From positions 128,001 to 192,000 of the forward strand of contig JBJMOW010000006.1 in the NCBI GenBank assembly GCA_045803545.1: DNA of 64,000 nt. The letters are read 5' to 3'. This stretch comes from Gemmatimonadaceae bacterium (lineage in GTDB: Bacteria; Gemmatimonadota; Gemmatimonadetes; Gemmatimonadales; Gemmatimonadaceae). The notes beneath the pieces were generated by a model that was not told the origin of the DNA, ran no database searches, and was given only the letters and a program-made list of their open reading frames with translations. Positions 3,399-33,861 of this stretch are shown piece by piece (positions within the stretch are counted from its first letter, which is position 1; every line of letters begins with the position of its first letter). The translations under genes were made by a program, and so were the position numbers.

Positions 3399-4618
3399 CG
3401 CACTCCGGAAATTGCGCGAATGAGCTGGCCGTCATCGGCGCCGATTTCCCAAATAATGATGCCGCCGAGGTTGTGCTCGCGCATGTAGTCTACTTTGGCC
3501 CGCACGGATTGCGGATCGTCGTAGGTGATCCACGTTCCGTTCAACGCATCGTACAGCCAGGGAACTTTTGCCGACGCTTCCCAATGCCGAACGTAGCGGG
3601 GATCGCTGAGCCGCGTGCGCGACAGTCTGCGCCAGTCGCCGTCCGATTCGTGCCAGTCACGCGGCTTGCCGGGCGACGGTTGAAAGAGTCCCGCGTTGGT
3701 CTTCGGAACGCGCCCATACGCGCGAGCAAAGAATGGCACACCGACGAGCAACTTTTGCGACGGCACACCTCCCTGCTCGAACGCGCGCATCGAAGCGTCG
3801 ACGTTGAGGTCGGGAGTCGGATCGTTCCTGGCCGCGAACAGCGGCGCGTTGAAGTGCGCGATCGGACCTTCGGTGTGATAGTCATACGTCATCACGTTGA
3901 TGAAATCGAGCAGCGGAGTGATCTGCGCCAGCTCGACGTTCGCGATCTCCGATGGTCGCGCTGAAGCGGCGATGGTCAGCTCATAATGACGGTTGTCGAC
4001 TTTGCCCTGCGCATCCAGCTGACGACGCAGCTCGGCCAGCAGCAGCGTAAAGTTGTGCTTGTCTGCCGGTCTCTCGACGTTACCCTTGAGCCCGCCCTGT
4101 ACCGGAAATTCCCAATCGATGTCGATGCCGTCGAACAGTCCGGGCCATTTGTGGAAGAAGAGCTCGATCGCAGACTCAGTAAACCGCTTGCGCGATTCAT
4201 CGGTCAGCGCAGCATCGGAGAACCGCGCCGATCCGCCCCACCCACCGATCGAGATCGTGAGCTTCAGATGTGGATTCTTCGCCTTGAGCTTGCGCAGCTC
4301 GCCAAAGTTTCCGCCCGGTTGCCCGGACGACGATTCGCCACGTCCGCACACGCCGATGTCGACACACCGATCGCCGAGCACCACCTCGCCTGACGCGTCT
4401 ATCAGCGCGAAGGCGTAGTAGATGTGAGTAAGCTGGTTTGCCGGCAGTTTTGCGATGGGGGTGCCTTTCGACTTCACTCCCCACGAGGCTAGGTAACCCA
4501 CGACGCGCATGGGGGGCGCGGCGGCTGTGAATGGAGCCGCACCGGTCGCCACGACGAGTGTCGTTAGAGCAGCGAGCGCAATGGCGGCGTATAGTCCGCT
4601 GCGCAATCTGCCAATCAC
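3395..4618 (-). CDS. Glycoside hydrolase family 18 chitinase, secreted
   Basis: SIGGW and catalytic FDGIDIDWEFP (DxxDxDxE), VMTYDY, C-terminal IIWE; signal peptide. Start placed at GTG 4618 because the longer ORF runs through a non-coding hairpin. Confidence 0.9.
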   Translation of the reverse strand: MIGRLRSGLYAAIALAALTTLVVATGAAPFTAAAPPMRVVGYLASWGVKSKGTPIAKLPANQLTHIYYAFALIDASGEVVLGDRCVDIGVCGRGESSSGQPGGNFGELRKLKAKNPHLKLTISIGGWGGSARFSDAALTDESRKRFTESAIELFFHKWPGLFDGIDIDWEFPVQGGLKGNVERPADKHNFTLLLAELRRQLDAQGKVDNRHYELTIAASARPSEIANVELAQITPLLDFINVMTYDYHTEGPIAHFNAPLFAARNDPTPDLNVDASMRAFEQGGVPSQKLLVGVPFFARAYGRVPKTNAGLFQPSPGKPRDWHESDGDWRRLSRTRLSDPRYVRHWEASAKVPWLYDALNGTWITYDDPQSVRAKVDYMREHNLGGIIIWEIGADDGQLIRAISGVR

Positions 4619-4620
4619 AG

Positions 4621-4768
4621 AACGAAAGCCGGGAGCTACCAGCTTAGGGAGCCTATTAGCTCGGAGCACGGTTGTAAGCACGCCCTCATATAAGGTTGCG
4701 CGCACCCAAAAATCAAACCGTGCTCGGCGCTAAGCTGCTCCCTAAGCTGGCAGCTCCCGGCTTTCGTT
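4621..4768. repeat. Long intergenic inverted repeat (53-bp arms, 42-nt loop)
   Basis: 4621-4673 is the reverse complement of 4716-4768 with 6 differences by manual alignment. Confidence 0.9.
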
Positions 4769-4815
4769 TCGTGGATGCTAGCCCGCGACTAGCCTCTCCG
4801 CCGTCCGTCCGATCC

Positions 4816-25617: not shown

Positions 25618-26015
25618 TGGCAGTGCGCGTCGTACGACTCGGCCAGCCTCGCACTAACGGGGAGGGTCTGCGCCTCGGCACCGTGCGCCGTCCACCGCGT
25701 GGCGTGCGCAAGGAGCAATATGCGTCTCTCGATTTCTTCGACGTGTGGATGCCGGAGCTCGCACCGAGCGCGCCACTCGTATCATGGGCGTTGTCGGAGC
25801 CCTGGACCGATAAACGGTGGGCCAAGTACGAGCGCTCATATCGCAGCGAGATGAAGAACCCTCCCGCGGCGCGGTTGCTTTCACTGCTCGCCGCGCTATC
25901 TCGCCAGACGGATTTCTCCGTCGGGTGCTACTGCGAGAATGAATCCCGCTGTCACCGCTCGATCCTGAGAGAGCTGCTCAGAGACGCCGACGCGGACATG
26001 AGAGATTCGGAATGA
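25617..26015 (+). CDS. DUF488 family protein (YeaO-like)
   Basis: RRPPRGVRKE, WMPELAPS, CYCENESRCHR; TGATG coupling to the upstream gene. Confidence 0.85.
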   Translation: MAVRVVRLGQPRTNGEGLRLGTVRRPPRGVRKEQYASLDFFDVWMPELAPSAPLVSWALSEPWTDKRWAKYERSYRSEMKNPPAARLLSLLAALSRQTDFSVGCYCENESRCHRSILRELLRDADADMRDSE

Positions 26016-26230
26016 TCAACCTGAACCTTCCGCCCCGCGACGATCATCGACGCCCTGCAAAGAATTCACGTTTCCTGATCGTGGTCATCGTGGCGATGGC
26101 CACGGTCCTCTCACTTCAATACACGTCGCATCCGTTCTTCGGACCGGATAAGACCGCGACGCTCTGGGGAATGTTTGTAGGACTGTTTATTGGGGGATTT
26201 CTGTTTGGATGGCTTCGGAAGCCGTGGTAG
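26012..26230 (+). CDS. Small two-TM membrane protein
   Basis: ATGA overlap with the DUF488 stop; two hydrophobic helices. Confidence 0.65.
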   Translation: MINLNLPPRDDHRRPAKNSRFLIVVIVAMATVLSLQYTSHPFFGPDKTATLWGMFVGLFIGGFLFGWLRKPW

Positions 26231-26397
26231 CTGCGGGAGGACGGCGAACTGACCGAGAGGCTGCGGGAGGAGAGCTAACTGATTGCTGCGAACTGCGAGC
26301 TGGATGAGAGTTGCGGGCTAGTTGCGAGAAGAGGGCTGGTTGCGAGAAGAGGGCTGGTTGCGAGAAGAGGGCTGGTTGCGAGAAGTCAGCTGGTTGC
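26227..26397 (+). repeat. Left arm of the inverted-repeat element, with an 18-bp tandem unit GTTGCGAGAAGAGGGCTG (3 perfect + 1 degenerate)
   Basis: Units start at 26321, 26339, 26357 and 26375; the arm is complementary to 26881-27045. Confidence 0.95.
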
Positions 26398-26439
26398 CCG
26401 CGACGAACGATGCTACGGGGCGCAAAATGATGATGACAG

Positions 26440-26874
26440 GTGAATTCATTCCGCTATGCTGTCGGGGTGAGTCACTCAAAACCTGCTTACTCGTTCGACG
26501 ACAGCGACCCACTGTCGAAGATGCAGGCGGTACAAATCACGCGCGCCCTGCTTCCGGAATGCTGGGACGACGCGGAGAAGCTGGCGCATAACGAGCTGAC
26601 CAAGAATATCGGCGGACAATTGTATGCTGCGATGGGCTCGATTCTCGCTAATCTCGGTGAGGGTTACTCGAGAAGCTCCGGCCGTGACCGCGCAAAGATG
26701 TTTGAGTACGCGCTAGGCTCCGTCCGCGAGAGCATGATGTGGTACCGGAGCAGCGTCCGCATTCTCGGCCAGCAGACGATAGACAAGCGGCTCGACAAGC
26801 TGGAGCAGGTACGTCGGCTCTTACTAGCAACAATCCCGCGGGAACGGGATCGCGTAATCCGACCAAGACGGTAA
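26440..26874 (+). CDS. Four-helix-bundle protein (23S rRNA intervening-sequence protein / bAvd-like fold)
   Basis: Family signature QLYAAMGSILANLGEGYSRSSGRDRAKMFEYALGSVRE. Start uncertain (GTG 26440 or ATG 26521). Confidence 0.88.
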   Translation: MNSFRYAVGVSHSKPAYSFDDSDPLSKMQAVQITRALLPECWDDAEKLAHNELTKNIGGQLYAAMGSILANLGEGYSRSSGRDRAKMFEYALGSVRESMMWYRSSVRILGQQTIDKRLDKLEQVRRLLLATIPRERDRVIRPRR

Positions 26875-26880
26875 AGTGCG

Positions 26881-27045
26881 CAGCTCTCTTCTCGCAACCA
26901 GCTCTCTTCTCGCAACCAGCCCTCTTCTCGCAGCCAGTTCTCTTCTCGCAGCTAGCCCGCAACTCTCATCCAGCTCGCAGTTCGCAGCAATTAGTTAGCT
27001 CTGCTCCCGCAGCGCAGCCGTCAGATAGGCTCCTCCCGCAGCTAC
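26881..27045 (-). repeat. Right arm of the inverted-repeat element (four 18-bp units plus unique arm)
   Basis: Units CAGYYCTCTTCTCGCARC at 26881, 26899, 26917 and 26935; 26953-27013 is complementary to 26260-26320. Confidence 0.95.
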
Positions 27046-28370
27046 ACGAGGGATTCGACGCCCTTAGCCGTAACCCGGTGCGAAACAAGAGGCAGTACTT
27101 TCGGCCTTCCCTCGCCAATCACGATTGCCTTCGCCAGAATCGATTCGCCCAGCTTCAGGTCGCTTTCGCTCCGCGCGTGAATTGTCCCCAGCGCATCGCC
27201 CTTGGTGACTCGCACTCCCGGCTTGGTGGTAATAACGAAGCCGACCGCAGGGTCGACGCTGTCTTCCATGTTGCGCCGTCCCCCGCCGAGGGCGATTACG
27301 CCGTAGCCAATCTCCCGCGGCTCGACACGCTGGACGACACCAGATACGGGAGCGAGGAAGTAAGCCTTGTGCGCTGCCTGCGGGAGGCGCTCCGGTTTGG
27401 CGACTACGGAGTCGTCGCCCCCCTGCGCGCGCACAATCTCCCTGAACTTCTCCAGAGCGCGCCCGCTCGTCATCGCATCGATCATCATCGCAGAGGCATC
27501 CTTGCTCGACTTCGCAATGCCTCCCAGCACCAGCATCTCTGCCCCCAGCGCCAGCGTCACTTCGACCAGATCGGCGGGGCCGGCCCCCTTCAGCACGTCG
27601 ATCGATTCGGCAACTTCGAGAGCGTTGCCGCAGGCGCAGCCGAGTGGACGATCCATCGCCGTCAACAGTGCGACGACCGGACAGTCGTGCGCGTCGCCAA
27701 GCTCGATCATCGCGTTGGCCAGCGCGATCTCCTGCTCCAGTTCCGGCATGAATGAGCCTGCCCCACGCTTGATGTCGAGGACAAGTCCCGTCAGTGACTC
27801 CGATATCTTCTTGCTCATGATGCTGGATGCGATCAGCGGGATGACTTCCACCGTCGCCGTTGCATCGCGGAGCGCGTAAAGTTTTCGATCGGCCGGGACG
27901 ATCTCCTCGGTCTGGCCGATCATTGCGCAGCCAATTCTTTCGACCTGGCGCTCCGTCTCGGCGAGCGAGAGCGAAGTGCGGAATCCGGGAATCGACTCGA
28001 GCTTGTCGAGGGTGCCGCCGGTATGGCCCAGCCCACGCCCTGACATCATCGGCACAGCGACGCCCAGCGACGCGATTAGCGGAGCCAGAATGAGTGAGGT
28101 CTTGTCGCCGACGCCACCGGTCGAGTGTTTGTCGATGCGCGGCTTTGCCAGATGAGCGAAATCGAGCCGCTTGCCGCTCGCCAGCATCGCATCCATCAAA
28201 GCGTTCATCTCGCTTCGATCGAGGCCGCGATAGTACACTGCCATCAGGAACGCAGCCATCTGATACTCGGGCACTTTGCCCTCGGAAAAGGCGATCACCA
28301 GCTCGTTGATCTCCTGGGGCTCGAGCCGGCCACCATTTCGTTTGCGCTCGATCAGACGGGGTACGATCAT
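27042..28370 (-). CDS. pdp: Pyrimidine-nucleoside/thymidine phosphorylase
   Basis: DKHSTGGVGDK, SGRGLGHTGGTLDKLE, SIMSKK. Confidence 0.95.
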   Translation of the reverse strand: MIVPRLIERKRNGGRLEPQEINELVIAFSEGKVPEYQMAAFLMAVYYRGLDRSEMNALMDAMLASGKRLDFAHLAKPRIDKHSTGGVGDKTSLILAPLIASLGVAVPMMSGRGLGHTGGTLDKLESIPGFRTSLSLAETERQVERIGCAMIGQTEEIVPADRKLYALRDATATVEVIPLIASSIMSKKISESLTGLVLDIKRGAGSFMPELEQEIALANAMIELGDAHDCPVVALLTAMDRPLGCACGNALEVAESIDVLKGAGPADLVEVTLALGAEMLVLGGIAKSSKDASAMMIDAMTSGRALEKFREIVRAQGGDDSVVAKPERLPQAAHKAYFLAPVSGVVQRVEPREIGYGVIALGGGRRNMEDSVDPAVGFVITTKPGVRVTKGDALGTIHARSESDLKLGESILAKAIVIGEGRPKVLPLVSHRVTAKGVESLV

Positions 28371-33644: not shown

Positions 33645-33861
33645 GCTGCGGGAGGAGAGCTAACAGATTGTTGCGAGCTGCGGGCTAGTTGCGAGATGAG
33701 AGCTAACTGCGAGACGAGGGCTCGCTGCGAAATGAGGGCTTGCTGCGAAATGAGGGCATTGCGAACAAATCGGAAGGGCGGCTAGCTCTGAACCCGCAAC
33801 TAGCCCGCAGCTCGCAACCAGCCCGCAGCTCGCAACAATTTGTTAGCTCTCATCCCGCAGC
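33645..33861. repeat. Gene-less inverted-repeat element of the same family as 26227-27045
   Basis: Starts with GCTGCGGGAGGAGAGCTAAC, identical to 26260-26279; 33645-33695 pairs with 33811-33861 (3 differences); four degenerate 18-bp units inside. Confidence 0.92.

Follow-up and report, generated by a model that had tools for sequence, protein, structure and literature searches.

Several described systems resemble the element reported here. Closest in organisation are the RAYT genes and their REPINs, which, as far as they are described in passages of PMC3116915 and 10.1101/2021.07.10.451892, share several features with it. One gene copy lies among inverted doublets that belong to a population scattered over the genome, a genome has several such gene/family pairs, and the doublets are extragenic and decay to singlets; inheritance of the gene at one site and erosion of the family where the gene is replaced are shared in part. 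Closest in design are the ORF-bearing intervening sequences (IVSs) in 23S rRNA of Coxiella and Leptospira, in which, according to passages of PMC4990558, a gene of the same protein family (S23p) lies in the loop of a long stem of complementary ends. MITEs and BIME/REP arrays are comparable in being non-autonomous, internally deleted relatives of a gene-bearing element and in their location at gene 3' ends; the passages of PMC3733652 that describe REPs at gene ends are silent on arms around the gene discussed here. The protein family itself, PF05635, has been noted in cas loci in a passage of PMC3936711 that is likewise silent on arms around the gene. Its structural relative Avd, of diversity-generating retroelements, grips an RNA stem-loop with all five protomers, according to passages of 10.1101/2023.10.23.563531.

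The locus lies in a 64-kb stretch of DNA (the window, to which all plain positions refer) from a Gemmatimonadaceae genome of 3.7 Mb that is 93% complete (G000). It is situated between protein genes and outside any 16S/23S rRNA gene, and no Rfam match was found in the 64-kb window. The element fills the whole interval between the stop codons of two convergent reading frames. On the left ends a 72-codon ORF (26012..26230, plus strand) with a hydrophobic C-terminal half, which an earlier note on this DNA had taken for a DUF488 gene, and from the right runs pdp, a pyrimidine-nucleoside/thymidine phosphorylase gene (27042..28370, minus strand). No intrinsic terminator was found at this junction. 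The earlier note had described pairing between 26260-26392 and 26881-27013 with 9 differences in 133 bp, a perfect outer 15-bp pair (26227-26241/27031-27045) and four 18-bp units per arm. Recomputation gave exactly nine mismatches (on the plus strand six G·U, one G·G, one U·U and one C·C), and both the outer pair and the 18-bp units were recovered in the sequence. A fold of 26200-27070 gave z = -19.7 against 20 shuffles.

Read from left to right, the element starts with an outer left duplicate (26227..26259, plus strand), a degenerate copy of the arm's terminal ~30 bp that covers positions 26228-26230, where the small ORF upstream has its TAG stop. It is followed by the left arm (26260..26392, plus strand; family A, see below), which consists of a terminal unit, degenerate 7-nt units and then the four 18-bp units (26323-26394). 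The loop contains a predicted sigma-70-like promoter (26433..26460, plus strand) and the PF05635/TIGR02436 four-helix-bundle gene (26467..26874, plus strand), which makes this the gene-bearing 'master' copy of family A. The right arm (26881..27013, minus strand) starts 6 nt past the gene's stop, with its four 18-bp units at 26881-26952, and the outer right duplicate (27014..27045, minus strand) covers the TAG stop of pdp (27042-27044). The outer pair, a tandem copy of the arm's end that thus overlaps the stops of both neighbour genes, is missing from three more distant orthologous cassettes (L337, L339 and L340) and is fuller in a fourth (L338). The longest ORF in the loop begins at 26440, the start used in the earlier note, but since homologues begin MSH the gene probably starts at GTG 26467 and encodes 135 aa. 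By their names, its closest named homologues indicate Gemmatimonadaceae. The -10 box ends 6 nt ahead of this GTG, which suggests a leaderless-type layout, and an mRNA from this promoter-like site would be without the left arm. The same promoter-like -10 layout is present in the four orthologues L337-L340; it is only modestly enriched over the family as a whole (24/124 PF05635 genes versus 110/1428), and Shine-Dalgarno-like motifs are rare at PF05635 genes (7/124 versus 31%).

The identification of the loop ORF as an IVS/Avd-like four-helix bundle held up, with scores of 37.9 bits against PF05635 (curated cut-off 33.8) and 47.3 bits against TIGR02436 (curated cut-off 24). A search of the PDB with the single sequence gave no match, but a profile search did, with 2GSC at E 3.9e-16. 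The protein model has a pLDDT of 90 and superimposes on Xcc0516 (2GSC), BT_0352 (2RLD) and Avd (4DWL) with TM-scores (query) of 0.67-0.71 and an rmsd of about 2-2.5 A, showing the fold of Xcc0516/BT_0352. Six polar residues, Q51, S58, N62, E65, S85 and E88, are near-invariant in the protein family. Values of dN/dS for the gene were 0.03-0.11 among four of the five orthologous sequences, L340 being omitted for its length difference, and judged from its sequence the loop gene is intact and under purifying selection. To our knowledge, structures of PF05635 members have been solved since 2006 and no function has been assigned to the family, and we know of no nuclease or recombinase with the four-helix fold of this family. 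The Avd proteins of diversity-generating retroelements (4DWL, 8UB7-8UBE) have the same fold as this protein (PMC10053308) at only 10-11% identity.

The genome contains eight PF05635 loci, all of which are flanked by inverted arms (8/8), and every arm is a different sequence. From the best-scoring PF05635 matches (one search alone gave 397 matches in 81 genomes) 147 loci were tested, of which 146 were distinct and 125 had 300-nt flanks on both sides. Arms were present at 115 of these 125 loci (92%), the other ten being unarmed at the threshold, compared to 2 of 841 (0.2%) other genes of 300-600 nt that a simple gene caller predicted in G000. The enrichment of arms around four-helix-bundle genes that the earlier note had anticipated was thus confirmed, and since only 2/841 other 300-600-nt genes have comparable arms, those at this locus are not due to chance. 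A 20-mer from the arm that had been put forward as a marker of four-helix genes fared less well, as a four-helix gene is present at only one of its four exact copies. When the sample was widened to include Chloroflexota, Verrucomicrobiota and other groups, 42 of 70 loci were armed and 28 unarmed at the same threshold, after 10/80 loci with short flanks had been dropped. The type of arm follows the type of protein: in 52 of 55 nearest-neighbour comparisons the arm cluster coincided with the protein clade, compared with an expectation of 9%, and arm and protein distances were correlated (Mantel rho 0.33, with 0/500 permutations as high), a co-variation that is partly expected from linkage alone. 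The pdp-locus, armed-locus, strand-bias and arm/clade sets include four loci from genomes flagged unpublished. An RNA stem was also sought by G·U strand bias, with a null outcome in three sets: the ratio of G·U to A·C mismatches was 252:290 in 127 cassettes, 124:126 in 43 co-directional doublets and 89:75 in 42 more, and the six G·U among the nine mismatches at this locus were treated as chance.

Most copies of every arm family in G000 are without a gene. Counting the two arms of each cassette itself, the families A to H comprise 19, 8, 6, 24, 8, 13, 30 and 12 arm loci, respectively, and the only overlap, which occurs twice, is between B and E. Gene-less doublets in the window include an A doublet at 33645..33861 (no strand assigned) that fills a convergent junction stop-to-stop, and an F doublet at 4616..4776 (no strand assigned). 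The gene-bearing copy of family F, on contig C6, is frameshifted (G000:C6:61404-61760), and its hairpin family persists with 13 arm loci, the one at 4616-4776 included. The 1545 intergenic regions of G000 were also clustered without reference to the gene, which resulted in 14 clusters of at least three regions. By our reading, two of these resemble tRNA genes and a third represents a local array, leaving 11 dispersed families, of which eight contain a PF05635 cassette and three do not; a profile of 125 proteins found no ninth PF05635 paralogue in G000 for the orphan families. Two gene-less A doublets are 82% alike over 218 nt, loop included, and in the related genome G088 a family (X) has 19 copies of a polar 193-nt unit with a mean identity of 89%. 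As far as sequence comparison can show, gene-less copies therefore replicate as whole units, loop included.

The families are also narrowly distributed. The motif of family A has 44 matches in G000, compared to 0-2 per genome in the 80 others of the genus, which is as few as the reversed control gave. Two hairpins, X and Y, were chosen in relatives at an orthologous junction with no gene in sight. Out of 81 genomes, G088 alone contains motif X, with 63 matches, and motif Y gave 26 matches in G014 and one in G088. Among the matches listed, which leave out 14 of X, both families include one pair that flanks a PF05635 gene. In genomes with a full PF05635 list, the best match of five out of seven junction hairpins is a cassette in the genome they come from, and the other two match none. 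For protein clade K, at least two matches to the arm motif were present in 15 of the 18 genomes that have a K gene (at least 67% identity) versus 25 of 63 in which no K gene was found, counts in which related genomes are not independent and assemblies are incomplete. One genome in which no K gene was found (G085; 91% complete, 10 contigs) has 14 K-motif matches, and another (G090) has three K-armed genes, so that one gene per family is not a rule. Some of the A, X, Y and K motif and PF05635 tallies come from genomes flagged unpublished (G063, G078, G093 and G094), and no conclusion depends on these alone. The data show that several families, each with its own paralogue, share one genome, and that their dependence on the gene is not strict. 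Families without a gene would be explained as relict families, or by a mover other than this protein.

Other repeats were observed alongside these families. A hairpin family with a branched conserved loop, unlike the families of 7-nt units, has seven or more copies of 110-150 nt that are often paired (G000:C2:235195, 240354, 678887 and 695321; C4:242102 and 1221051; C6:79391); a gene copy of it was not found. At G000:C2:638000-658600, about 20 kb, where genes are poorly called, 13 intergenic regions have a common repeat. Around the family-E cassette (G000:C4:1501600-1522000) and elsewhere, dense tandem 7-nt arrays bracket whole genes and operons, and one cluster of such arrays comprises 45 intergenic regions. 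In G088, one or two diverged 21-nt units are present at one polar end of many X copies (e.g. L283, L322 and L332), and these may be the remains of an older, replaced hairpin.

The turnover of these hairpins could be followed from site to site. Of 24 X elements examined, 19 have a colinear site in G000, and seven of these sites contain a full A element and about three, by eye, an A remnant, while none contains a member of families B-H; at nine or more of the 19 the orthologous junction is empty. Of the seven X/A sites, one is where X was chosen, and another four had initially been identified by starting from family A. Among 10 genes compared, that of X is the closest to the A gene (70%), and the arms of the two are colinear (41 of 70 nt). 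Shuffled A/X pairs were as similar as the orthologous ones in 638/720 permutations, so we rejected plain in-place inheritance of the hairpins and conclude that their sequence was replaced in place. The gene-less populations thus carry the same arms as the cassettes, land just behind stop codons (see below), and are replaced in place by a newer family. No target-site duplication was seen at two clean empty/filled pairs, and a sharp end motif was not found. Three layouts occur among family-G cassettes, doublet-gene-doublet, arm-gene-doublet and short arm-gene-doublet, in L114 (G014:C172), L112 (G030:C87) and L006 (G000:C4), respectively, which suggests insertion into or beside existing doublets.

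The gene-bearing copies have a history of their own. Four metagenome contigs (L337-L340), whose proteins are 80-94% identical to the one described here, have the cassette at the same junction, with A-type arms in all; the core is inverted in L338, which could be a misassembly. The earlier note had recommended inspecting the DUF488-pdp junctions of relatives. The gene is kept in these four close orthologues, and it was found at none of 29 other pdp loci of the genus. The pdp junction of G014 has a Y hairpin in the cassette's place, and family A is present in that genome only as a single-arm remnant at a site shared with G000, as would be expected if a family shrinks where its gene is lost. In G095 the pdp junction has a third hairpin, and its near twin G067 has almost none there. 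Flanks were unrelated for 319 of 344 gene pairs at 65% identity or more, and one site has different paralogues in G000, G088 and G012, with the G012 copy in the opposite orientation. The gene copy appears to be inherited vertically for long periods, may flip, and occupies new sites between lineages. Among the contigs listed from four soil DNA runs, two pieces over the cassette are 92-95% alike and none joins across it, which is uninformative on excision. No RNA run was listed among the sequencing runs that contain the cassette.

The organisation itself, an armed gene accompanied by gene-less families, is real and well supported, and we hold it with high confidence. From it we infer, with a probability of roughly 0.55, a two-part element with the organisation of RAYT/REPIN systems, of which this locus would be the copy that carries the gene; a protein of the Avd fold would take the position of the RAYT and drive the spread. 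The earlier note had proposed that the protein spreads the repeat, and this is still a plausible role, with the correction that each paralogue has its own arms and that most copies are gene-less. In the proposed mechanism, the protein would be made from its own loop promoter and would probably form a pentameric ring like Xcc0516 and Avd, the pentamer being suggested by likeness to 2GSC. Its target would be the cognate arm in the form of a DNA hairpin, which could be extruded from either strand, for example at transcription ends or on the lagging strand, and it would promote the formation of new copies of arm-bounded units at gene ends or in place of hairpins already present there. The exchange of strands could be performed by the protein's own Q51, S58, N62, E65, S85 and E88, or by recruited host repair enzymes. 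Template switching between arms would account for the homogenised arms, for the symmetric duplications at their ends and for the inversions. On this view, the 23S rRNA IVSs with an ORF would have arisen from copies inserted into an rRNA helix. A wider proposal, which we regard as tentative, gives PF05635 proteins the role of sequence-specific mobilising factors for hairpin elements of a widespread class: as small Avd-fold rings they would copy arm-bounded units to gene ends and replace older hairpins, with no known transposase or reverse transcriptase involved; the rRNA IVSs would then be stray insertions and the Avd of diversity-generating retroelements a recruited relative.

The location of the gene-less doublets at gene ends also fits another explanation, in which the protein is an RNA-binding regulator and the hairpins are 3'-end signals (terminators or stabilisers) of a lineage that lacks RNase III, each paralogue binding its own arm family, its own mRNA included, while the hairpins spread and are rewritten by host recombination or gene conversion without the protein. 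Leaving out family E, 24 of 75 gene-less doublets of G000 are located at convergent junctions (odds ratio 2.9), and of 43 co-directional doublets 29 lie within 15 nt of the upstream stop and only two within 15 nt of the downstream start. The same 3'-end bias also follows from selection against promoter insertions. The junction at 33645-33861 contains a long hairpin in six of six genomes, a different one in each, and conservation of a hairpin despite differing sequence would suit a 3'-end signal, as would the lack of an intrinsic terminator at the convergent junction of the cassette and the RNA stem-loop binding described for Avd in 10.1101/2023.10.23.563531. Against a regulatory role speak the orthologous junctions that are often empty, the lack of any G·U strand bias in sets with a known direction of transcription (124:126 and 252:290), and the species-specific families with fast turnover, which are unlike a regulon. 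We consider this explanation rather unlikely.

If the doublets were REP-like and moved by another, unrecognised enzyme, the gene could be a passenger that was captured in a doublet long ago and has an unrelated function, and its arms would resemble the family simply by belonging to it. Arms do capture other genes, and unrelated genes enclosed by arms were found in two cases in G000. A 128-aa membrane-protein gene within family-A arms (L207; G000:C4:1137714-1138408) is inverted relative to G014, G088, G090 and G025, and in G088 it sits within family-X arms; a ~150-aa gene is enclosed by arms of a family that lacks PF05635 (G000:C2:39095-40002). The existence of families without a gene copy would likewise be accounted for. 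This view is difficult to reconcile with the presence of arms at 92% of the family's loci versus 0.2% of other genes, with a different family for each of the eight paralogues, and with an arm type that tracks the protein clade across sites, whereas the captured membrane gene switches arm family between species; a passenger gene is in our opinion improbable. Candidates for another enzyme were sought in four transposase, reverse transcriptase and nuclease families, in genomes that are incomplete. Y1 transposases (PF01797) were found in 2/16 genomes and in none of G000, G014 and G088, and reverse transcriptases (PF00078) in 4/16 genomes, again in none of these three. For IS110, G000 has only a 34-residue match (E 5.7e-4), G088 none and G014 one full match, and a GxxExxY partner was not found in G000. 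Adenine mutagenesis of the type seen in diversity-generating retroelements was rejected, as substitutions among X copies are not adenine-specific.

RNase III was not found in G000. PF00636 gave no match in six genomes, and PF14622, run on 61 genomes of the order with a completeness of at least 90%, gave one; that single match, on a short contig, finds nothing in G000. The order may have lost RNase III, and such a loss could favour the accumulation of long hairpins. A structured RNA that is cleaved by this enzyme, as considered in the earlier note, is not supported, given that RNase III was not found in 60/61 genomes, that there is no G·U strand bias and that the promoter-like site lies in the loop. 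The note's broader description of a free-standing IVS-like unit survives in part, as the design is that of ORF-bearing rRNA IVSs and the arms are tied to the gene family, and what falls away is the processing by RNase III. That read-through RNA folds into the long stem, is cut by RNase III, and so releases the ORF as a separate RNA and splits the host transcript, is very improbable in spite of the excision by RNase III of the Coxiella IVS of the same design (passages of PMC4990558), the very stable predicted stem and the six of nine mismatches that are G·U on the sense strand, considering the missing enzyme, the lack of a family-wide G·U bias, the promoter-like site within the loop, the core inverted in one close relative and the gene-less families, which an IVS leaves unexplained.

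The preferred reading, a two-part element with the PF05635 protein as driver of spread, does not reduce the locus to any described system. RAYTs are HUH/Y1 transposases, whereas the protein here is a 135-aa four-helix bundle; the arms are 25-170 bp of degenerate 7-nt units instead of 20-40-bp REPs, there is no conserved GTAG/CGTC end, and the gene occupies the doublet's loop and is found at different sites in different lineages. IVSs with an ORF differ in that the element here lies outside rRNA, in a host apparently without RNase III, and is accompanied by gene-less families, and its ORF is under purifying selection with a promoter-like site, whereas the Coxiella ORF is decaying according to the passages of PMC4990558. 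Diversity-generating retroelements differ in having RT, TR and VR, none of which is present here, and in adenine-specific substitution, which the copies do not show. With regard to MITEs, no target-site duplication was seen at the two clean empty/filled pairs, and no Y1 or full IS110 partner was found among the families searched. The element fits no known family by its defining features, and it fails the HUH test that identifies a RAYT. In the literature covered, from which subscription papers and bioRxiv supplements were absent, we found no account of PF05635 genes with arms in a non-rRNA context, nor of gene-less families cognate to them. This genome contributes the pairing of paralogues with families, the prospective recovery of the gene from the X and Y hairpins, the in-place replacement and the missing RNase III.

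The eight paralogues with distinguishable arm families provide a direct test of cognate versus non-cognate binding or movement in one genome, and since the lineage seemingly has no RNase III, the element can be viewed apart from the only known route of IVS processing. If the protein is a regulator, it would represent an unknown class of 3'-end control, and if it is the mover, it would be a new kind of mobilising protein with a changeable sequence specificity.
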